Source: Alphaproteobacteria bacterium (GTDB lineage: Bacteria > Pseudomonadota > Alphaproteobacteria > Rs-D84). Taken from it: DNA of 56,630 nucleotides. Below, piece after piece: positions 1-56,630 of this stretch. The notes under the pieces were generated by a model, which searched no databases, was not told the origin of the DNA, and saw only the letters and a program-made list of their open reading frames with translations. The translations under genes and the position numbers were made by a program. The stretch spans positions 1-56,630 of the forward strand of contig JAFSDI010000017.1 of assembly GCA_017436325.1 (NCBI GenBank), read 5' to 3'. The stretch's first letter is position 1, and each line of letters begins with the position of its first letter.

Positions 1-136
1 TGTCAACCTTAGACGATATTGCGGTTGCGATTTGTGATGCGACCTGTTCGCGCATATATGCACTGGACGGGATGCTGGCGATTGCCGGCGCAGTTGTCGA
101 AATTAGTGTAAGCGTTAAAAAAATTGTTTTTTTCAT
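1..136 (-). CDS. exported protein, N-terminal fragment (gene continues past the window start)
   Basis: The ATG at 136-134 (reverse strand) is preceded by the SD GCAGGAGGG (complement of 142-150). The translation MKKTIFLTLTLISTTAPAIASIPSSAYMREQVASQ... is a typical signal peptide. The ORF is missing from the ORF track only because the window edge truncates it. Confidence 0.45.
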   Translation of the reverse strand, partial: MKKTIFLTLTLISTTAPAIASIPSSAYMREQVASQIATAISSKVD

Positions 137-167
137 TTGTGCCCTCCTGCTTGGTTGGTTGTTAATT

Positions 168-420
168 AAAAAACCACTGAAAGTCTTTCTTATTCAAGTG
201 GTCAGGAGGTTAACGACAATCTTTGGAATTGTGCTGCTTATTCAGTATATTCGCAAGCCCTCCTGACCCATATCGGTCAGGAGTTTGTTCATCGAATAAA
301 AAATAGCGCGAACCTGCGCCAATAAATTTTTATTCAGACGCCAAAGAGAGGTCGTTACACCCCAATACGATAGTTCAATCGTATCGAGTTTATTGTATAT
401 TTTTTTGTCTGATTGTGCAA
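168..420 (-). promoter_or_regulatory. structured leader RNA module, copy 4 of 4 (promoter + hairpins + long-range helix + terminator) upstream of the 1-136 gene
   Basis: The promoter is TTGCAC-N17-TACAAT (complement of 415-420 and 392-397). In the RNA sense, X is CUCCUGACC (276-284), Y is GGUCAGGAGGG (258-268), a UAUAC motif lies at about 245-250, Z is CCUCCUGACC (200-209), and the terminator is CCACUUGAA/UUUCAGUGG plus U6 (168-201). Z is also complementary to the SD at 142-150. The module is homologous in layout to 28952-29243 and 56244-56536. Confidence 0.6.
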
Positions 421-632: not shown

Positions 633-3600
633 TTAAAATTCATATCTGAAATTTAAACGACCTGTTTGCGAGGTATAATCTTCGCGTGCTTCGATATCAT
701 AATTTAATGACATCTCTAGCCCCATATAATTCATACCGATACCAATACCAACTTCGTTCGCAATACGTGACAGACGTTCGCCACTTAATATATACGAATT
801 TACACCAGGCATCGTGACAACTATATCATTGTGGTCGGATATTAAATCGTACTTTAATGCATAACGAAGCTGTGGACGAATAATCCAACCGTTGTACATA
901 TAGATATCAAATTCATAACGTGTACCAAGCGATGCTGTTAAATAATTAGCATTGTCAAACTTGTTGCTGATACCCAATGAATTAGTGTAATCAGATGAAT
1001 CTAGGTACATATATTGCAAGGATAATTCCGGTGTAAGACCACCAAGAAATTCATACCCTGCGGCAACGCGCGCACCAAACGTATCAACATCATAATCCGA
1101 TGTTATACCAATGCCAAAGGCATTACCGTCTTCGTGATAATCTGCCATAGTATAATTCAATATCGCGTCCATATACCAGACACTTGGCTGATAATGACCA
1201 TAGATAAAGATACTTGATGAATCTATGTCCGTATCACGTGTAGCGCCTGAAATATCTGAGTGCGAATACATATAACCAGCACCTAAGGTCAAATCATCGG
1301 CAAACATTCTGTCAAAACCAACGGCAATACCGCGAGTGTAGCCATTAAATGCACTGCTATGTTTTGACTTGTTATACAGTCCCTGGGCCCAGATGCCACC
1401 AAATTCGACATCTGCATCACCGCCACTGCGACCAATGCCTGCCAACATCATACGATCTAAAACTAATGATGAAAGCGCGTTTTGCGTGTATACGCTGGCA
1501 GACTGTGCAACAAAGTTTTTTTCTGGGTTTATTGCAGCGCCCGCTTCTTCAACAGCAGCAATATCTGATGCTGTGCCAGAAGCTAGTTTTTCTTGGAATA
1601 TTACCGATAAGTCATTTAGACGAACAGACGAAGATTCTGATGAACTTGAAATTACACGCGCAGTTTCTGGTGTAATATTATTCTGTGACGCAATATCTTC
1701 AACAGATTTTATGGTCGCGGTCACATCGCCACCAGACCAGGTCAAATCATAAATCGAACTGACAATATCAATATTGTTAAATGTCTGATTGCCAAAGACG
1801 TGAAATATACCAGCCTTGTCCAAAGATAACTTTAATGTACCAGTGCCTGTAAAACCACCGTCATCATTCACTGTAATCTGTGCTGTATCCCCGCTGCGCA
1901 ATGTCGCCAACATCGTACCATCAAGAACTATTGAGCCCTGAGTTATATCACTGCTGCCGATATCCATCGTTGCACCAGTCGCGATATTTAGTATACCACC
2001 GCCTGTGATGCCGCCACTGAAAACAGAATCCGCGTTAAGGTTAATAGTTCCATCGTTGTGAATGTCATTCTGCACACCGTTTGCAGTGTTACCTTTAAAT
2101 GTTGCAGAACCGTTAAAGGTAACTGTATCATTATTATAAATCGCACCACCATAACCACCAGACGTGTTGTTCGTAAATGATACGTCATTATTAAATACTA
2201 TTGTTGATGTGCCTGTTGTGCCACCAGATGACGATACATAATTCCATATCGCACCGCCATCCAAGGTCGATGTATTTTTATTAAAATATGTCGAACCATT
2301 TATTGTAATATCAGAATCTTGACCAGAACCATCAAATGCACGCGCAACTATCGCACCACCATAGGCACCAGAACTGTTAGAATCAAAACGATTTATACTG
2401 TCTGCATCACCAATAACTAATGTTGCCGTTCCTGTATTGCCACGATTATGTATTGCGCCACCACCGCTTTTGGTCGCACCTGTATCATTGGCGATATTAC
2501 CTTGAAACGTATTTTGGGCACCTGTAATATTTAAATCACCGGCATTAAATATTGCACCACCATAACCACTGGCCGACTTATTACCTGTAAAAGATATATC
2601 TGATGCAGATAATGTTACAGTACCACCATTATCAAATGCACCGGCACTGTTGCTGGTCTGGTTTGCAGCAAACAAGATATTTCCAGTCGTATCTAATGAA
2701 ACAGAACCGCTATTCTTTAGGCCACCGCCATTGCTGCCACTGTTATTTGAAAAAATAAAATCACCAGATGTACCAATAATATTTCCCCTGTTTACCAAAG
2801 AACCATTTAAACTGTTTGTATTATCAGAAAATGTCGCACCATCGGAAAATGACACTGTTGCACTTGTAGAATTATTTAATAATGTACCAACACCAGTATT
2901 GCTGGAAAATGTCGCACTGTCTTTAAAGGTTAAACTGGACATCGCTTCGCCGATATATATCGCAGATGCACCTGATGCGACATTATTGCTGAAAGTCGCA
3001 GACTGTGCAAAAGTAGTATTACCGCCCATAATAGCAAGTGCACCACCACTTTTACCGGCGCTGTTACTGTCAAAACTTGCAGCACCATTAAATATCATAT
3101 CGCCAGCAGACATAATCGCACCACCCTGAGATGCTGATTCATTGCCAATAAAATTTGCATCGCCCGCAAAAACAATCATACCATTTCTGTGATTTATCGC
3201 ACCACCACCTGCATATACCCCATTCATACTTTCTGTAACTTGGTTATTACTGAAAGTCACAGAATCAGTAAATAATATATCTGGTGATGTTGCATTGCCA
3301 AGACCATAATTAAATATCGCACCACCACCATTGTTATTGTTGGTGGAATTATTTTCAAAGTTCGCAGAACCATTAAATATAATCTTGCCACCTTGTGTAT
3401 AACCAACACCAGACAATGATGATAGCCAGCCATTACCAATAACGCCACCCATACCGCCGTTATTCAGCGAATTTCCTGAAAAACTGCTGTCGCCATTAAA
3501 AACTAAATAGACACTTGGTACATCCTGCATATAAAAAACACCACCGTTGTTCGCAGTTGTCGAAGCAATGTTTTCTGCGACTAAATCTGTATACGTTGTG

Positions 3601-3710
3601 TTGGTATCAATAACTTGACGCGCTGTAATTGTTTCTGAGAACGCAGGCATAACCAATAATGCTGGCAATACAGACACACCCAGAAGTTTAGTATAAAAAT
3701 TGTTTTTCAT
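633..3710 (-). CDS. autotransporter outer-membrane protein with Pmp-type (GGAI / FxxN) passenger repeats
   Basis: The track ORF is 633-3785. I moved the start to the ATG at 3710, which has an AAGGA SD just upstream and is followed by the signal peptide MKNNFYTKLLGVSVLPALLVMPAFSE. The passenger domain carries many GGAI-type repeats (GGGAIFN, GGGAINH, QGGAIMS, YGGAIFN, GGGAIHN, YGGAIVA, DGGAIWN, YGGAIYN). The C-terminal beta-barrel-like domain ends in ...RLNFRYEF. Confidence 0.8.
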   Translation of the reverse strand: MKNNFYTKLLGVSVLPALLVMPAFSETITARQVIDTNTTYTDLVAENIASTTANNGGVFYMQDVPSVYLVFNGDSSFSGNSLNNGGMGGVIGNGWLSSLSGVGYTQGGKIIFNGSANFENNSTNNNNGGGAIFNYGLGNATSPDILFTDSVTFSNNQVTESMNGVYAGGGAINHRNGMIVFAGDANFIGNESASQGGAIMSAGDMIFNGAASFDSNSAGKSGGALAIMGGNTTFAQSATFSNNVASGASAIYIGEAMSSLTFKDSATFSSNTGVGTLLNNSTSATVSFSDGATFSDNTNSLNGSLVNRGNIIGTSGDFIFSNNSGSNGGGLKNSGSVSLDTTGNILFAANQTSNSAGAFDNGGTVTLSASDISFTGNKSASGYGGAIFNAGDLNITGAQNTFQGNIANDTGATKSGGGAIHNRGNTGTATLVIGDADSINRFDSNSSGAYGGAIVARAFDGSGQDSDITINGSTYFNKNTSTLDGGAIWNYVSSSGGTTGTSTIVFNNDVSFTNNTSGGYGGAIYNNDTVTFNGSATFKGNTANGVQNDIHNDGTINLNADSVFSGGITGGGILNIATGATMDIGSSDITQGSIVLDGTMLATLRSGDTAQITVNDDGGFTGTGTLKLSLDKAGIFHVFGNQTFNNIDIVSSIYDLTWSGGDVTATIKSVEDIASQNNITPETARVISSSSESSSVRLNDLSVIFQEKLASGTASDIAAVEEAGAAINPEKNFVAQSASVYTQNALSSLVLDRMMLAGIGRSGGDADVEFGGIWAQGLYNKSKHSSAFNGYTRGIAVGFDRMFADDLTLGAGYMYSHSDISGATRDTDIDSSSIFIYGHYQPSVWYMDAILNYTMADYHEDGNAFGIGITSDYDVDTFGARVAAGYEFLGGLTPELSLQYMYLDSSDYTNSLGISNKFDNANYLTASLGTRYEFDIYMYNGWIIRPQLRYALKYDLISDHNDIVVTMPGVNSYILSGERLSRIANEVGIGIGMNYMGLEMSLNYDIEAREDYTSQTGRLNFRYEF

Positions 3711-3858
3711 GTATATCCTTTTTTTTGCTTGTACATTTTTAGATATACAACTTGTGTAAAAAAAAATAACTAGGTTCGTTTTCACAACCTAGTTATTAAG
3801 ATAAATTTTATAAAATTATTAAGACATTTCAATTAACATAATAAATAAATTATGTTAC

Positions 3859-11484: not shown

Positions 11485-11569
<85 letters not shown>

Positions 11570-11610: not shown

Positions 11611-11687
11611 ATGTAGAAATTGGTAGACGCGCTGAATTTAGGTTCCCTGCGCAACCCATAAGAGTGCGCCGCTCTTTACCCGCACCA
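11611..11687 (+). pseudogene. decayed tandem duplicate of tRNA-Leu (non-functional)
   Basis: Residues GAAATTGGTAGACGCGCTGAATTTAGGTTCC...CATAAGAGTGCGCCGCTCTTTACCCGCACCAAACCTTACCCCCCGCG repeat the tRNA and its 3' flank. The 5' acceptor strand is missing, the anticodon stem is broken, and the T-arm is mutated (GAGTGCGCCGCTC). Confidence 0.6.
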
Positions 11688-11774
11688 AACCTTACCCCCC
11701 GCGCGCAACAGGTCAAAAATTCCTTTGAATACTGTCATATATATAAAAGCCCAAATTTATGATATATTCTTATT

Positions 11775-28388: not shown

Positions 28389-28601
28389 ATGACAGATATA
28401 AAACAACAAATTTTCCAGGAACTGACTTCATTAGAAGATGCAGCTGCACGACTGCGCGGGACAGCAATACACGCCGGAAAACAAACAGATTTAGAAGTGG
28501 CAATCCTGTCTGAACAAGTGCGCACATTGCGTGATAAAAATGCACGGGCATCAGAAATGATTAATGAAACAATATCAATATTAGAGCGGCTAAAAAAATG
28601 A
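28389..28601 (+). CDS. small coiled-coil protein (zapA-upstream partner, DUF4164-like)
   Basis: This 70-aa helical, charged protein overlaps zapA by 4 nt (ATGA). Its position is the same as the conserved small gene that precedes zapA in alphaproteobacteria, as I recall. Confidence 0.5.
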   Translation: MTDIKQQIFQELTSLEDAAARLRGTAIHAGKQTDLEVAILSEQVRTLRDKNARASEMINETISILERLKK

Positions 28602-28876
28602 GTGTTGTATCAATACCAATCGTTAATAAAAATTACCCCATGGGATGTGAAGATGGACAAGAACATCGTTTAATAGAACTGGGGAAAATGGTTGATGCAC
28701 GGGCGCGTCAGATTTTAGATAAAATTGGGCCCTTGCCAGAAAATTCATTATTGGCGACACTTTGTATTGTCTTGGCAGATGAGGTTTTTAACCGCCCTGC
28801 CCCAGTGGCAACAGATGCTGATTTAAAAGAAATATTGGCGCGCATCCGCGAAATAAAACATAAAATATCCCAGTAA
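28598..28876 (+). CDS. zapA: cell division protein ZapA
   Basis: The sequence MSVVSIPIVNKNYPMGCEDGQEHRLIELGKMVDARARQI...LLATLCIVLADEVF matches the ZapA N-terminal pattern (V.I.G..Y...CEDGQE..L). Confidence 0.8.
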   Translation: MSVVSIPIVNKNYPMGCEDGQEHRLIELGKMVDARARQILDKIGPLPENSLLATLCIVLADEVFNRPAPVATDADLKEILARIREIKHKISQ

Positions 28877-28951
28877 TTAAAATTTAGTGCTGTATAAAAA
28901 TTTTAATCATACAAATACAAGTAACAGAATAATAAAAGTGCTTTTTATCGC

Positions 28952-29243
28952 TTGATAAAGCACGTATTCTGTGATATAATTTATCGTGAAATCGCAGGGA
29001 TGCGCTTTCGGGGCCTTAGAAAAGCCTTTCAAGAATCCATATAAGCAAAACTTATATTGGAAATCCGCGCATAAATGGCGCGTTTTGCGCTTTTTTTTGT
29101 GCAATTTGCCCTGTGCAAAATATATTTTGTCGGGGTGCCGTCGGTTATACCACAGGGGCCCAGCGCCCCAAAGACCGATGGGATCGATATTCTTGACGAT
29201 TTTTCTAACACCCCGACCGCCTTGTATCCTGTGGCGGATTTTT
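28952..29243 (+). promoter_or_regulatory. structured leader RNA module, copy 1 of 4 (promoter + 5' hairpin domain + three-way-junction domain + terminator) upstream of the 29266-30597 operon
   Basis: The promoter is TTGATA (28952-57), a 17-nt spacer, then TATAAT (28975-80). The 5' domain has hairpins and ends in a GC hairpin plus T8 (29091-98). P1 pairs GUCGGGGUG (29129-37) with CACCCCGAC (29209-17). P2 pairs CCGUCGGU (29138-45) with ACCGAUGG (29174-81). The UAUACCACAG motif lies at 29146-55. The terminator is CCGCC-N11-GGCGG-AUUUUU (29217-43). Confidence 0.65.
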
Positions 29244-29265
29244 AATAAAAAAAAACAGGAATATT

Positions 29266-29556
29266 ATGAAATTTATTTTTTGTGGAATTTTATTGTTAAT
29301 ACCGCCGTTTACAGGTATGGCTGTCACACTTGCAGAAAAGCAGGCAATTGTTAATCAACTGAATCTGGAGATTCAGGAACTGGACAAACAACTGATAAAA
29401 TGCAAAAAAAATAAAACTGTTTGGCAGGCAACAACTGCCACCGGCAGCATCGGAAATATTCTGACAGGCATAGGTATCGTATCAAAAACAAAGCAATTAA
29501 AACAATTAAACGCAGATGCACAACAAAAAACAGAAGGTGAAGGCAATGAACAATAA
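29266..29556 (+). CDS. small exported coiled-coil protein, unknown family (paralogue of the next gene)
   Basis: An AGGA SD lies upstream. The signal peptide is MKFIFCGILLLIPPFTGMA. A coiled coil is followed by the Gly/Thr-rich hydrophobic segment TTATGSIGNILTGIGIV. Confidence 0.55.
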   Translation: MKFIFCGILLLIPPFTGMAVTLAEKQAIVNQLNLEIQELDKQLIKCKKNKTVWQATTATGSIGNILTGIGIVSKTKQLKQLNADAQQKTEGEGNEQ

Positions 29557-29947
29557 AAAATTTATGGCTATTCTTCTGTTACTTGTACCGACACCTACAA
29601 TCGCCACAGATATGGACGTGCAATATCAAATGCTGGATTTACAAATCGAAAAATTAACCGCAGAACGAAATTCAAAAAAGGAATTGTTACACGAATGCGA
29701 AAAGGCCACCAGAAAATTTAAAATCGCAGGCACAGCGACACTTACCGCAACCGGAATCGGCGCAATTGTAAACGATAATCTTAAGAAAAAAATCGAAAAT
29801 ATGAGTGCGAATAATTCTGGAAATCATAACAGTATCGCAAACCCAGCAAGTATGCCAAACGCAATCGAAACAAATTGCAAACAAGTATGCGATGGTGACC
29901 AATCTTGTATTAAAGAATGTATCGAATTCTATCAAAAAAACAACTAA
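29546..29947 (+). CDS. small exported coiled-coil protein, paralogue of 29266-29556
   Basis: The start was moved to the ATG at 29546, which has a GAAGGTGAAGG SD. The signal peptide is MNNKKFMAILLLLVPTPTIA. A coiled coil is followed by GTATLTATGIGAIVN (compare the upstream gene) and a Cys-containing tail (CKQVCDGDQSCIKEC). Confidence 0.55.
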   Translation: MNNKKFMAILLLLVPTPTIATDMDVQYQMLDLQIEKLTAERNSKKELLHECEKATRKFKIAGTATLTATGIGAIVNDNLKKKIENMSANNSGNHNSIANPASMPNAIETNCKQVCDGDQSCIKECIEFYQKNN

Positions 29948-29970: not shown

Positions 29971-30597
29971 ATGAAAAAAACTTGTTTAATGACACTGACC
30001 GCAATAATCGGTCTGACACAAGCTGCCGATGCCGGATTTATTGCACAACAATGCCAAAAAAAGGTAGATGCAGGAACACACATTTTGCTGAATGCAAATA
30101 CAAATGACGAAAGATGTGTCCCTGTGAATGCATGTAATGATTTGGACTTCGCACCATATTACTGCAATCGCCTGTTCAAAAATATTCAGGTTTCTTCGGT
30201 GCGCGATGCAGAAGAATTGGTTAATATGTTTATAAAAAACAATATGAATATTTCCGAAGGATGTGCATTCAAAGAAACTAATGCGCGTGTTGTCGGTCAG
30301 GACTTTGTACGCTGTGTATTGCCAAATGATGGATATATCGAATTTGAATTCGATGATTTAAGTGAGAGCAATTCTGAAACATCAGAATATTCTTATTTGG
30401 TCGGACAATGCATCGCATATGGTGGCAATATTGACGAGAGAGCAACACAAGACAAACCACTTTTAGCACAGATACCTGTAAATAACGCAAGAAAAGTCCT
30501 TAGATGTCGCGATGTAACAAAAGCACAATGCGAAGAAATGTACAATGGATACGCGGGATATGTCGAAGCAGATAAAACCTGTGTTTATAATCGTTAA
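29971..30597 (+). CDS. exported Cys-containing protein, unknown family
   Basis: An AAAGGAG SD lies upstream. The signal peptide is MKKTCLMTLTAIIGLTQAADA. The mature protein has multiple Cys. It is the last gene of the operon, just before the terminator. Confidence 0.6.
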   Translation: MKKTCLMTLTAIIGLTQAADAGFIAQQCQKKVDAGTHILLNANTNDERCVPVNACNDLDFAPYYCNRLFKNIQVSSVRDAEELVNMFIKNNMNISEGCAFKETNARVVGQDFVRCVLPNDGYIEFEFDDLSESNSETSEYSYLVGQCIAYGGNIDERATQDKPLLAQIPVNNARKVLRCRDVTKAQCEEMYNGYAGYVEADKTCVYNR

Positions 30598-39778: not shown

Positions 39779-39974
39779 CCGAACTTGATAATAAAAAGTT
39801 CGGGGATTTCAAGTCCCATAAGCCGAGATATTTTAAACATCAGTTTATTTTGCCTGACCTAGGTTGGTTGGCTATCAGTAGTTATACAACAGTTTTTTCC
39901 AAAAGCTAAGAAGCCATTCGGCTTAACCCGACCATCATATCTTGAAAAAAACCGCGTGGGTGCGCGGTTTTTTT
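39779..39974 (+). ncRNA. structured leader RNA module, copy 3 of 4 (shorter and degenerate; no downstream ORF)
   Basis: Hairpin 1 pairs CCGAACUU with AAGUUCGG (39779-39803) and is followed by GGGG, as in the other copies. The UAUACAACAG motif lies at 39883-92. P1 pairs GGUUGG (39862-67) with CCGACC (39928-33). A P4-like hairpin AAGCC-AUUC-GGCUU is present. The terminator is ACCGCG-N6-CGCGGU plus U7 (39951-74). Confidence 0.45.
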
Positions 39975-40030: not shown

Positions 40031-42184
40031 TTATGAGCCAGAACCTTCACCTGAGTCAGATTCTATCGGTTTGCCTTCCAATGCACTGTACACCCAATTT
40101 TTTAACAACACAGGGTTAGGGGTATTACGGACATCGCCATTTACCGACATACATGTTATAATCTGTGGTCGACAGGCATTGATTGCAATATTGTTTGCTG
40201 TTTTTTCTTCATCAGTTTCCTGTTCAGCTTCAATACCTACATACTTATTTTGTGTCAAGCATGCTTCTACATCAGTTAAACAATTTTCGGCATACTCATT
40301 TAACAGATTATCCTGCATTGTTTTAATTTGAACTAATGTACGTTGCAAGTATTCCCTGACAACAGGATTAGCTGGATTATATGTACCATCTTTGTTATAG
40401 CTGACATCCTGACATTTATTTAGGACAGACATACACATACCATAATTTCTGCGATCTTCTTTGTCGTTATAACCGATTTTATGTTGTAAGAATCTGGCTA
40501 AATTATAATCTGTATTTACTGGCAAATATACACCACCACCACTATCTTCCAAAGAATCATTAATATAATCCGTTAAGGAGGAATTCGACCATGCATTTAA
40601 ACTGCTATCTTTAATTTGGTTCCAGGTTTTATACAAGCCTTCTGTCGTATAAACAGGCGGAGTCAATGAACCTGAACCAGAAGATTGACCTGGTTCTGAT
40701 CCAACAACAATTTCACCGTTTACGATATACTTGCCAGTTGGGTCAATACAATTTTCATAATCAGAACCACAGACAAAATCGTCCTGCATACATGAATCAA
40801 GCGCGTTTATGCAACCACGCAAATCATATGCATTCTTTTGCTGTGCAACCATTAAGCGCGCACGTTGCAGAACACTTTTTGCATTGCGTACTGTACGTGC
40901 CATTTCTTCGTTGCTGTCTGTTAAACTGCGTTCATAGGCAACACACTGCTTATCAATTTCCAAATCGTATGCATTTGAAATAATTGATACATCAACACCC
41001 TGGGCAGAACAATCTGTTAATACCGCCGCCTTGCAACGCGCAGCAGCTGTTTTATATAATTGTTCGCCACGCTGATTACTGATACTGTTGGTATTCGACT
41101 GATTACCACCAAACAATGATGCTAAATCAAAGCCAGTGCTGTCGATAGAGAAATCCAACATACCAGACAAATCAAAACTCATCCCTGTTTCTGTAGAAGA
41201 TGCCGTTCCGCCCTTTACATCGACAATCAATCTCTTGATTTTATCCAAATCATTCTTTAACTGTGAATTATCAGATTTTGACTGCATTGTTTCTTCTGCA
41301 ATTGTCTGCGTGAACAAGGTTTCAACTTCATCACCAGTCAAGCCAATATACTGAATCTGTTGTGCAACGTCTTGTAATGCCTCTGTCGCTGTTTTTAATG
41401 CTTCTTCGGTTTTGGCATAGTTCTTTAGATTCTTTGAACAGCTGCAACGTCCCTGATTATCATCCAGAACATTACAGAAATTATCCATACACTGGGTATA
41501 CTGCGCCTTGCAAAAATCAGTGATTTGCGCCAATTCATCCATTGACATCGCAACCTGCTCGGCCGATTCGCTGGCAGTTGTGCTGGCACCCACACTTGCA
41601 GTAACACTTGGGATACGTGCACGAACCGCACCAGAACGCATCGCAACACGACCTGTATACAATGGCGCATTAACAGTATCTGTTTGTGTAATTCCAGCAC
41701 GCGACACATCGACAGCCGGCGCATTATTATTTTGCATTGCACGGCGCGTTACAGAAATCTGTTCTTGGGATGTCGGACGCGCAACAGTCGAACGCGATAC
41801 AGCACCGCGTGTCATCGCACCCTGAGTCGTTGCAGTACGTGGTGCAACACGTTGTGTTGTCGCACTGCGTGACGATGGGGTCACACGACCAGTCGCAGCA
41901 ACGCGCCTTGCGCTGTTGTCCGCAGACGATGCAGCACCAGACACAGGCACTGCACGTGAAACAGTACGTCCAGGATTTGCAGTACCACGTGCCCCAGCAC
42001 GAGGAGACTGTACCGCCGGCGCAACATATACCGCACTTCCCTGCTCTATCGTTGCATCATCAGACACTTCTGTATCTGCAACATCTGAAACCTCTTGATA
42101 AGTTTCATCGTAATAAAGCGGTGCAACCTCTGCAAATGCAGGTAACACCAACAGTCCACTTAATACTGCAATAAATCTTTTCAT
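40031..42184 (-). CDS. large secreted protein: Arg/Ser/Thr/Ala-rich low-complexity region plus Cys-rich C-terminal domain, unknown family
   Basis: The signal peptide is MKRFIAVLSGLLVLPAFAE. Residues ~60-200 are R/S/T/A/V-rich quasi-repeats (...RVAATGRVTPSSRSATTQRVAPRTATTQGAMTRGAVSRSTVARPTS...). A Cys-patterned domain follows (FCKAQYTQCMDNFCNVLDDNQGRCSCS...). A GAAGGGAAG SD lies upstream. Confidence 0.65.
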   Translation of the reverse strand: MKRFIAVLSGLLVLPAFAEVAPLYYDETYQEVSDVADTEVSDDATIEQGSAVYVAPAVQSPRAGARGTANPGRTVSRAVPVSGAASSADNSARRVAATGRVTPSSRSATTQRVAPRTATTQGAMTRGAVSRSTVARPTSQEQISVTRRAMQNNNAPAVDVSRAGITQTDTVNAPLYTGRVAMRSGAVRARIPSVTASVGASTTASESAEQVAMSMDELAQITDFCKAQYTQCMDNFCNVLDDNQGRCSCSKNLKNYAKTEEALKTATEALQDVAQQIQYIGLTGDEVETLFTQTIAEETMQSKSDNSQLKNDLDKIKRLIVDVKGGTASSTETGMSFDLSGMLDFSIDSTGFDLASLFGGNQSNTNSISNQRGEQLYKTAAARCKAAVLTDCSAQGVDVSIISNAYDLEIDKQCVAYERSLTDSNEEMARTVRNAKSVLQRARLMVAQQKNAYDLRGCINALDSCMQDDFVCGSDYENCIDPTGKYIVNGEIVVGSEPGQSSGSGSLTPPVYTTEGLYKTWNQIKDSSLNAWSNSSLTDYINDSLEDSGGGVYLPVNTDYNLARFLQHKIGYNDKEDRRNYGMCMSVLNKCQDVSYNKDGTYNPANPVVREYLQRTLVQIKTMQDNLLNEYAENCLTDVEACLTQNKYVGIEAEQETDEEKTANNIAINACRPQIITCMSVNGDVRNTPNPVLLKNWVYSALEGKPIESDSGEGSGS

Positions 42185-56243: not shown

Positions 56244-56536
56244 TTGCAACAGGTTCGCTTTTTCGATATAATAAAAGTTGAACTGGATGGGAATCTGGTT
56301 CGGGGCTGTCACAAGCCTGACTAATCCGGTGCAAATATATGTGAACATATATTAAGTGTCGTTATTCCGACAAAGATATTTCCTGTATTTGCATCGCAAT
56401 CTTGATTATCCCTGACTTTTATGGTCGGGGGGCTGTCCGCTATACAACAGGTGTTTACACTAAAAGCGGGCAGAATCAGTGATTAGTTGATTTGTGAACT
56501 CCCCGACCGCATTGATTTTCATTGCGGTTTCTTTTT
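56244..56536 (+). promoter_or_regulatory. structured leader RNA module, copy 2 of 4, upstream of the 56564 gene
   Basis: The promoter is TTGCAA (56244-49), a 17-nt spacer, then TATAAT (56267-72). Hairpin 1 pairs UUGAAC with GUUCGG and is followed by GG. X is CCCUGAC (56411-17). P1 pairs GGUCGGGGGG (56423-32) with CUCCCCGACC (56499-508). P2 pairs CUGUCCGC (56433-40) with GCGGGCAG (56466-73). The UAUACAACAG motif lies at 56441-50. The terminator is CCGCAUUG-N5-CAUUGCGG-UUUCUUUUU (56507-36). Confidence 0.65.
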
Positions 56537-56563
56537 ACACAAACAATTAAAGCGGGGGACATT

Positions 56564-56630
56564 ATGAATAAAAAAATTCTTTTGGGCAGTATATTTACAA
56601 TTTCAATTATCGGTATGACGCATGCTGAAA
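56564..56630 (+). CDS. exported protein, N-terminal fragment (runs off the window end)
   Basis: The ATG at 56564 has a GGGGGA SD 5 nt upstream. The translation MNKKILLGSIFTISIIGMTHAE... looks like a signal peptide. Confidence 0.45.
   Translation, partial: MNKKILLGSIFTISIIGMTHAE

Follow-up and report, generated by a model that had tools for sequence, protein, structure and literature searches.

A leader RNA between zapA and an operon for exported proteins

The 56,630-nucleotide (nt) contig JAFSDI010000017.1 of the alphaproteobacterial assembly GCA_017436325.1 (lineage Rs-D84), whose full length is called the window here, carries at positions 28952 to 29243 of its forward strand a leader that an earlier note had singled out as a structured RNA. 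The leader lies just 3' of zapA (28598 to 28876) and consists of a promoter, a 5' hairpin domain, a three-way-junction (3WJ) domain, and an intrinsic terminator that ends 22 nt before a three-gene operon. All three operon proteins start with signal-peptide-like N termini; none of them has a match in Pfam, and a homologue search with the 208-amino-acid (aa) protein returned only that protein itself. The promoter that had been read at the start of the interval (TTGATA-N17-TATAAT) is present, of the sigma-70 type, and TG extended, and transcription would start about 7 nt 3' of its -10 box. The GC hairpin with its U-run, helices P1 and P2, the internal loop, hairpin P2a, AAAG, hairpin P3, the terminator, and the Shine-Dalgarno sequence (SD) with its ATG also lie where the earlier note had put them (Table 1). 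The terminator, called T below, was missed by a simple terminator scan because its loop is 11 nt long.

The same architecture had been reported from four places in the window. A covariance model of the junction domain built from the family described below (R1), run on both strands with filters off, found exactly these four and nothing else credible; the scores of copies 1 and 2 are high by construction, because both sat in the training alignment. The four are not equal members, since copies 1 and 2 are intact and copies 3 and 4 are degenerate. Likewise, the compensatory P1 and P2 pairs that had been listed are correct for copies 1, 2, and 4, but in copy 3 both helices are broken. The gene behind copy 2, which encodes a protein beginning MNKKILLGSIF... 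and extends past the window end, had been given a wrong start codon, which is corrected in Table 1. Copy 4 keeps P1 through two compensatory changes. Copy 3 lies between convergent genes and has no gene downstream; with its broken helices it looks like a decaying orphan, and such decay is expected if the function of the leader depends on a downstream gene. The neighbors of the window copies are chromosomal genes, namely those for ZapA, an M13 peptidase, and a class II aminoacyl-tRNA synthetase.

TABLE 1 Positions of leader elements and adjoining genes for the four copies in the window
Feature	Position	Strand	Description
Copy 1 promoter	28952-28980	+	-35 TTGATA, 28952-28957; N17 spacer with TG; -10 TATAAT, 28975-28980; 11/12 match
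Copy 1 H1	28988-29009	+	5'-terminal hairpin; GGGA apical loop, then invariant UUCGGGG
Copy 1 H2	29010-29028	+	5' domain; GGGGCC...GGCCUU-type hairpin
Copy 1 H3	29037-29060	+	5' domain; A/U-rich hairpin
Copy 1 H4/T0	29077-29098	+	GC hairpin GGCGCG-UUUU-GCGCU plus U8; terminator-like, inside leader
Copy 1 segment 1	29108-29116	+	GCCCUGUGC; 5' strand of P0, pairs with P1 5' strand
Copy 1 3WJ domain	29128-29218	+	Xcc1-like; R1, 77.6 bits; RF02221, 30.9 bits across the full model
Copy 1 P1	29129-29137 : 29209-29217	+	GUCGGGGUG : CACCCCGAC
Copy 1 P2	29138-29145 : 29174-29181	+	CCGUCGGU : ACCGAUGG
Copy 1 internal loop	29146-29155	+	UAUACCACAG; single stranded
Copy 1 P2a	29155-29169	+	Hairpin, then AAAG
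Copy 1 P3	29182-29201	+	Hairpin; J3/1 is UUUCUAA
Copy 1 T	29215-29243	+	Intrinsic terminator, GACCGCC...GGCGGAUUUUU; opening GAC is the last 3 nt of the P1 3' strand
Operon SD	29256-29261	+	First ATG, 29266; operon span to 30597
Operon gene 1	29266-29556	+	96 aa
Operon gene 2	29516-29947	+	143 aa
Operon gene 3	29971-30597	+	208 aa
Copy 2	56244-56578	+	Complete leader; RF02221, 33.9 bits
Copy 2 promoter	56244-56272	+
Copy 2 H1-H2	56280-56319	+
Copy 2 segment 1	56409-56416	+	UCCCUGAC
Copy 2 3WJ	56423-56508	+	R1, 82 bits
Copy 2 terminator	56505-56536	+
Copy 2 SD	56552-56559	+	GCGGGGGA; ATG at 56564
Copy 4	134-420	-	Diverged leader
Copy 4 H1	364-385	-	Without GGGA loop
Copy 4 H4	298-322	-
Copy 4 segment 1	275-283	-	CUCCUGACC
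Copy 4 3WJ	200-268	-	R1, 24 bits, E = 0.003; P1 GGUCAGGAGG:CCUCCUGACC; without P2a
Copy 4 terminator	168-203	-
Copy 4 SD	~142-149	-	CAGGAGGG; ATG, 134-136
Copy 3	39779-39974	+	Shortened, decayed
Copy 3 H1	39779-39803	+
Copy 3 H2	39803-39817	+
Copy 3 segment 1	39852-39859	+
Copy 3 3WJ remnant	39862-39933	+	R1 match 39866-39933, 19.4 bits, E = 0.03; many non-pairs
Copy 3 terminator	39945-39974		Strong, bidirectional

The leader family in gut Alphaproteobacteria

The promoter-to-terminator leader is a real family, found well above chance. A strict DNA pattern (GTCGGGG-N8-16-TATACNACAG-N35-65-CCCCGAC), for which about 5 chance matches were expected, identified at least 111 loci in a collection of species-representative genomes, and the counts out of 111 given below refer to the listed matches. 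Nearly all of the listed matches come from metagenome-assembled genomes (MAGs) labelled Candidatus Enterousia or uncultured Alphaproteobacteria, recovered from the guts of humans, mice, goats, sheep, deer, buffalo, yaks, horses, and rabbits. One MAG (JAFXFG01) has copies on at least seven contigs, and several others have them on four or five. A few listed matches from a different setting belong to Sphingomonas, Sphingobium, Altererythrobacter, and a MAG labelled Caulobacter. A metagenome scan with a pattern that left P1 free added about 18 further true elements with variant P1, while a loose pattern gave no matches in viral contigs. Enterousia belongs to the order Rs-D84, and its genomes are smaller than 1 Mb (PMC12306168).

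About half of the metagenome pattern matches were one unrelated, near-identical sequence (…CAGCTATCTATGCACTATACAACAGGTGAAATACTGAGTGTATGTGGAAGTCATGGAAGCATGCATGATTT…), mostly marine and without P1, which matched the pattern by chance and was discarded (L115, L117, L118, L120, L126, and about 20 more loci). A leader of the usual Enterousia type, with a signal-peptide gene, also stands on a contig labelled Bacteroides fragilis (L019, CAVGNU010000003.1), which was probably mis-binned or mislabelled.

A same-strand open reading frame (ORF) with an SD follows 106 of the 111 listed copies (~95%). It starts a median of 48 nt after P1, so that there is no room for a second promoter, and the leader terminator ends 15 to 35 nt before its SD. 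Signal-peptide-like N termini, called by a crude heuristic that was applied uniformly to leader and other ORFs, were found in 66 of 83 leader ORFs versus 210 of 845 other ORFs of the same loci (odds ratio, 11.7; P = 7e-23). The leader is repeated before related genes, as had been proposed, and these overwhelmingly encode exported or cell-surface proteins. Of the 78 complete downstream proteins, most match no Pfam family; the families found are outer membrane protein (OMP) beta-barrels, Opacity/OmpA/OmpW porins, the YadA anchor, autotransporter, surface antigens, TRL lipoprotein, sulfatase, glycosyltransferases, and a few helix-turn-helix (HTH) proteins. Orthologous genes keep the leader, as at locus L084, which carries the counterpart of window copy 2 together with the MNKKI... 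protein.

The downstream proteins of six loci (L006, L012, L025, L044, L073, and L088) share the motif …[AS][LI][VI]SR[GS]FLDE[AV]L[ET][NS]YATT… after the signal peptide. They appear to be paralogs in a surface-protein family whose members differ in length and take the leader with them.

Covariation of the junction and terminator

RNAalifold returned P1, P2, P2a, and P3 from 106 core sequences, with compensatory changes in 11 of 22 pairs. In a MAFFT alignment of 52 sequences from P0 to the terminator, which included P1 variants and was not fitted to the structure, 82.9% of cells pair versus 35 to 55% when the partners are slid, both sides change in 26 of 32 pairs, and 0 of 500 shuffles reach any observed measure. 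This agrees with the earlier claim that the helices are kept by covariation. The overlap of the terminator with the 3' strand of P1 was also borne out: the 8-bp T stem (GACCGCCA:UGGCGGUY) is 90.6% paired versus 23 to 60% when slid, and it shares three GAC columns with the end of P1. At least five U residues lie within 8 nt after the T stem in 70 of 91 members, and in one member (L142) the two arms of the stem change together, so that GAUCGUCAA pairs with UUGACGAUC. With a G+C-rich stem of 7 to 8 bp followed by a U-run, T has the form of an intrinsic terminator.

About 20 unpaired nucleotides of the junction (UAUAC.ACAG, AAAG, and UUU.C.AAC) are invariant over diverse genes and hosts, which is partly a matter of ascertainment. 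Eight pattern-free matches show variants of the internal loop such as UAUAUAACAG and CAUACCAUAG.

The 5' part of the leader, which measures about 250 nt in all, is conserved as well. Each copy has a predicted sigma-70 promoter of its own. A TANNNT box, mostly TATAAT, was found in 86 of 92 members, with a mode at 26 nt before the invariant UUCGGGG, and is usually accompanied by a -35-like TTG. The predicted transcript opens at about GAAUCC with H1, followed by UUCGGGG and H2, by H3, by a conserved AAUCCG, and by a long H4. Among 59 distinct H1 hairpins, 63 to 80% of positions pair, through several pair types, versus 35 to 51% when slid, and the apical loop is GGGA in 31 of the 59. H4 is a GC hairpin with a U-run in 50 of 109 members. 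The "first terminator" that had been seen in the 5' domain therefore stands for copy 1, but as an element present in only about half of the members, H4/T0 is a feature of a subfamily.

A competing helix and near-isoenergetic states

A C-rich strand (segment 1; consensus CCCUGAC) lies directly upstream of P1 and is complementary to the P1 5' strand (segment 2). The earlier suggestion of an upstream alternative helix that competes with P1 holds: this helix, P0, has at least seven contiguous pairs in 84 of 107 elements; for two control windows taken farther 5', the counts are 31 and 10. The P0 strand follows P1 variants, as in L135 (AUCUCGGUC:GACCGGGAU), L127 (UUCCCG:CGGGAA), L054 (UCCCGAC:GUCGGGA), and window copy 4 (CUCCUGACC:GGUCAGGAG), where both P0 and P1 follow two G-to-A changes in segment 2. 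P0 (segments 1:2), P1 (2:3, closing the junction), and T (3:4) share strands and are mutually exclusive.

The minimum-free-energy fold of copy 1 uses segment 1 in P0. When 104 members were folded under constraints, the P0 and P1 states differed in energy by a median of -1.5 kcal/mol (P0 minus P1; interquartile range, -4.6 to +1.2), and the two states are near-isoenergetic in this model. The terminator is predicted to have a median of 9 pairs when P0 forms and of 5 when P1 forms.

The SDs of the leader genes are G rich: GGGA occurs in 70% of them versus 27% of other SD-bearing ORFs, and GGGG in 51% versus 24%. In full read-through leaders the G-run of the SD is predicted to be paired (mean probability, 0.85), with segment 3 as the partner in 47 of 94 and segment 1 in 35 of 94 (82 of 94 together). 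Together with a bias in the terminator loops, these SD features suggest either control at the level of translation or contacts between loops that involve the GGGA loop of H1.

The terminator loops (29225 to 29233 in copy 1, 56513 to 56521 in copy 2) are pyrimidine rich, with UCC in 41 of 91 and GGA in 0 of 91. These UCC loops, the GGGA loop of H1 (28996 to 28999 in copy 1), and the GGGA and GGGG of the SDs hint at contacts outside a simple attenuator model. In copy 4, the SD region (GCAGGAGGGC, 142 to 149) repeats 9 nt (CAGGAGGGC) of the P1 5' strand (GUCAGGAGGGC, 259 to 268), and both C-rich partner strands can therefore pair equally with the SD.

Relation to sRNA-Xcc1 and other structured RNAs

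The Rfam scan suggested in the earlier note was run with Rfam 15 on the window and 18 related loci; at the gathering score it returned only tRNAs and hence no confident named class. The claim that the leader belongs to no known class thus stands at that score, but below it the 3WJ has a reciprocal match to sRNA-Xcc1 (RF02221), a poorly understood, integron-encoded small RNA (sRNA) of Xanthomonas campestris. RF02221 was the best full-length sub-threshold match, for copies 1 and 2 (Table 1) as for a Sphingomonas variant (31.2 bits), all below the gathering score of 53; E is 0.0014 for copy 1 in a 401-nt search. The alignments span model positions 1 to 87 with all helices in register, so that the topology is that of Xcc1. 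Conversely, R1 had as its top match a bona fide Xcc1 from an Escherichia coli O26 prophage (79.6 bits with RF02221), which it placed at the coordinates that RF02221 gives (22.4 bits, E = 6e-4). The junction domain is therefore distantly related to Xcc1, or shares at least its fold; by the Rfam criterion it is not a member.

Window family and Xcc1 have in common a G/C-rich P1 (GGCCGGGG:CCCCGGCC against GGUCGGGG:CCCCGACC) of the same topology and register, a P2 with the internal loop AUACAA(U/C)A, a small P2a, an A-rich 3' side (GAA/AAAG), P3, and a U-rich J3/1. Both lie 35 to 50 nt upstream of a co-oriented gene; in the E. coli prophage, 39 nt separate bona fide Xcc1 from the ORF6N gene that follows, and it also precedes ORF6N in the APSE phage and symE in Xanthomonas integron cassettes. 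Unlike Xcc1, the window family has a conserved 5' hairpin domain of about 130 nt, the competitor P0, and an overlapping intrinsic terminator. It is also chromosomal, has many copies per genome, and precedes exported or surface genes, whereas Xcc1 serves mobile-element regulators or toxins. The residence of Xcc1 on mobile elements (integron, prophage, plasmid, or transposon) was not found for the window copies.

In the immunity-like region of the prophage of E. coli O26 strain RM10386 (L114, 1463 to 2608), isrK (61.8 bits), C4 (77.4 bits), and Xcc1 (79.6 bits) stand in a row, and isrK and C4 precede or overlap a gene for a Rha-family regulator. This arrangement suggests that Xcc1 is a leader for antirepressor-type genes. 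A distinct Xcc1-like variant of the Sphingomonas type (GUCGGGGAG...UAUACAACAGG...CUCCCCGAC, then a long GC hairpin; L030, 440 to 660, and L178, 3001 to 3597) was found on 185 alphaproteobacterial plasmids, 151 of them conjugative and mostly from Rhizobium, Agrobacterium, and Bradyrhizobium, and also in Sphingomonadales chromosomes. The records leave it unannotated; its place in Paracoccus aminophilus pAMI8 is directly 5' of a gene for a small HTH regulator. Because bona fide Xcc1 and this plasmid variant also sit just 5' of genes, a cis-regulatory role for the whole Xcc1 superfamily is plausible.

C4 and isrK (RF01695 and RF01394), which belong to P1-like prophage immunity, are likewise three-way-junction RNAs in the leader of the operon that they control, and in the E. 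coli O26 prophage isrK, C4, and Xcc1 each stand before an antirepressor-type gene. C4 acts by antisense pairing of its loops with the downstream ribosome-binding site. A C4-like cis-antisense action of the invariant loop UAUACAACAGG was considered and rejected, since its complementarity to the downstream 80 nt amounts to -4.5 kcal/mol versus -5.0 for shuffled sequence. The c-di-GMP-I and -II (GEMM) riboswitches also occur in many copies per genome before genes for secreted, surface, and adhesion proteins, often with terminators. Their likeness to the window family is one of deployment only, with no sequence or structure match; the sole c-di-GMP-I match has 12 bits and lies on the wrong strand.

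The leader of copy 1 fills the slot directly downstream of zapA (28598 to 29243), where E. coli-type genomes carry the 6S RNA gene. A 6S RNA (RF00013), which this neighborhood suggested, has no match in the window at either Rfam threshold.

A human-microbiome catalogue of structured RNAs names no Alphaproteobacteria, Xcc1, or secreted proteins; its unnamed candidates could not be checked. Three things are new as far as can be checked: the composite leader, in which a 5' domain, P0, and an Xcc1-like junction are combined with an overlapping terminator; the expansion of this leader in Rs-D84 genomes; and its tight link to the exported and surface proteome.

A proposed transcription-attenuation switch and its alternatives

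The reading we prefer, and hold to be rather likely, is that the leader is a cis-acting transcription-attenuation RNA, riboswitch-like or protein-responsive, with a putative effector; its role is probably that of an on/off transcription switch. Segment 1 (CCCUGAC) would pair with segment 2 (GUCGGGG) in P0, an anti-antiterminator; segment 2 with segment 3 (CCCCGAC) in P1, an antiterminator that closes the 3WJ; and segment 3 plus CGCC with segment 4 (GGCGGUC) in T. By default P0 would form first, T would be completed, and transcription would stop. A putative effector would stabilize the folded 3WJ and P1, the base of T would be removed, and RNA polymerase would read into the gene. Candidate effectors are a small ligand or a protein that might bind the invariant UAUACAACAG, AAAG, and UUUnCnAAC. 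A second layer is likely, in which the G-rich SD (GGGGA) would be sequestered by whichever C-rich segment (1 or 3) stays free.

The strand sharing of P0, P1, and T and their near-isoenergetic states in folding models fit the proposal of the earlier note that the architecture is that of riboswitches and attenuators. Leaders of the trp type switch among 1:2, 2:3, and 3:4 pairings, and the pbuE adenine riboswitch is a transcriptional ON riboswitch. As in such classical attenuators and ON riboswitches, the leader has three mutually exclusive helices and a terminator just upstream of the SD. Like P1 of a riboswitch aptamer, its antiterminator helix closes a covarying junction with invariant unpaired nucleotides, although some of this invariance is ascertainment; the expression platform, in silico, has helices that are exclusive of the closing stem. 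The family differs from these systems in that it has no conserved leader peptide, a regulon that is not a metabolic pathway, a short P1/T overlap of 3 to 4 nt, and a large extra 5' domain. Because there is no conserved leader peptide, the switch is not ribosome mediated: a trp/leu/phe-type attenuator was rejected, as small ORFs occur in some copies only, without an SD, and are not conserved, and the Rfam matches to Leu and Phe leaders are noise on terminators.

Several points weigh against a simple switch of this kind. The transcription start, promoter use, termination at T, and read-through are all inferred, as are the way in which the switch turns and the presence and kind of an effector, and a regulon of surface and exported proteins gives no metabolic clue to a ligand. 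The overlap of P1 and T is short. Pairing of the SD is predicted for both states, and a plain ON/OFF logic may therefore not suffice. Because P1 and the UAUACNACAG loop were fixed in the strict pattern, their apparent invariance is in part ascertainment. Some of the copies are explained by gene duplication that took the leader along, as several downstream proteins are paralogs. Finally, the related Xcc1 has been reported as a trans-acting sRNA.

The last point leads to the alternative that the leaders are themselves genes for trans-acting sRNAs, the product being the ~250-nt terminated transcript, whose UCCCC strands would pair with target SDs, and read-through being leaky. The 3WJ matches RF02221, which is typed as an sRNA and whose homologues the literature treats as sRNAs (PMC12189769), but bona fide Xcc1 also lies 39 nt before a gene, and upstream of symE. 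An sRNA gene would have its own promoter and a U-tailed terminator, as the leader does, yet 95% of the listed copies stand at a fixed short distance 5' of a co-oriented gene that has no room for a promoter of its own. Copy 3 lacks a downstream gene, but this orphan is the decayed copy. The C-rich segments can indeed pair with the GGGGA SDs common to the gene set, but the joint covariation of three mutually exclusive helices speaks against this alternative, and tens of near-redundant sRNA genes would be odd in a genome of less than 1 Mb. We regard it as unlikely.

We also think it improbable that the leader is a constitutive cassette, i.e., a strong promoter with a protective 5' hairpin and a stabilizing or insulating untranslated region, spread by gene duplication and without any switching. 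A terminator between promoter and gene would be counterproductive in such a cassette, and P0 is conserved and covarying, with competition against P1 as its sole evident role; the alternative states are, moreover, predicted to be near-isoenergetic. H1 would be well placed for protection, right at the predicted transcription start, and several downstream proteins are paralogs that could carry the leader along, but unrelated gene families (OMPs, lipoproteins, and glycosyltransferases) carry it too, and the roughly 20 invariant unpaired junction nucleotides extend over very diverse genes and hosts. It would suit a cassette that no candidate effector or sensor came to light: a tblastn search with CsrA, Hfq, NusG, RfaH, and FliW gave no matches in the 1.28 Mb of fetched loci, which are not a whole genome. 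Neither the sRNA nor the cassette fits easily with a conserved, covarying competitor helix and with a terminator that stands between promoter and gene.

The promoter-carrying, Correia-like miniature inverted-repeat transposable element (MITE) that the earlier note named as its main alternative, with helices that would be DNA inverted repeats, is very improbable and was rejected on orientation, distance, and RNA-only pairs: the family is multicopy, P1 reads as an inverted repeat, and the related Xcc1 occurs on integron cassettes, prophages, and conjugative plasmids, but orientation and the distance of ~48 nt to the gene are fixed in 106 of 111 listed copies, compensatory changes are nested in four helices with strand-specific G-U pairs (U-G in P0, G-U in P3), no target-site duplications or terminal repeats flank the outer ends and no terminal inverted repeats occur beyond P1, orthologous genes in different MAGs keep their own diverged leader (L084 versus window copy 2), and viral contigs gave no matches.

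Implications of the proposed cis-acting attenuation leader

If the leader is a cis-acting switch, one signal might control essentially the whole exported and surface proteome of the Rs-D84 gut Alphaproteobacteria. Candidatus Enterousia and other Rs-D84 are uncultured and common in human and livestock guts, with genomes of less than 1 Mb and a coding density of about 90%. Many noncoding leaders of 250 to 300 nt in genomes so compact would therefore point to strong selection and to one RNA-based system of cell-surface control. As a more speculative extension, terminated leaders with exposed UCCCC might also act in trans on the GGGGA SDs of one another's genes and repress them, so that surface-protein genes would cross-talk or exclude one another.

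sRNA-Xcc1 is annotated as a trans-acting sRNA in many pathogens of plants and animals and in prophages, integrons, and conjugative plasmids; our results suggest that it is probably a leader element 5' of genes. We raise only tentatively the wider idea that the Xcc1-type 3WJ may be not an sRNA but the sensor of a widespread, undescribed class of cis-acting switches (riboswitches or protein-responsive antiterminators), which in Rs-D84, with small genomes and few regulators, would have expanded to tens of copies and become fused to a 5' domain. With more than 100 representatives, clear covariation, and a readable expression platform, the family is an orphan switch candidate of a kind that has yielded new riboswitch classes and RNA-protein regulators, and the E. 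coli O26 prophage and the plasmids of Rhizobium, Agrobacterium, or Paracoccus offer tractable experimental models.

Other features of the window

Two long ORFs on the minus strand of the window are predicted to encode exported proteins. One (633 to 3785; 1,050 aa) contains internal DNA repeats with a spacing of 200 to 285 nt; the other (40031 to 42184; 717 aa) is Cys rich with an N-terminal region rich in S, T, A, and R. Where tested, neither has a Pfam match, and they add to the impression of many unfamiliar surface proteins. A tRNA-Leu gene (anticodon TAG) at 11485 to 11569 is followed 120 nt on by a partial copy (11611 to 11646 and 11651 to 11700; 90 to 92% identical) that Rfam and ARAGORN do not call a tRNA and that could be a duplication scar or an integration site.

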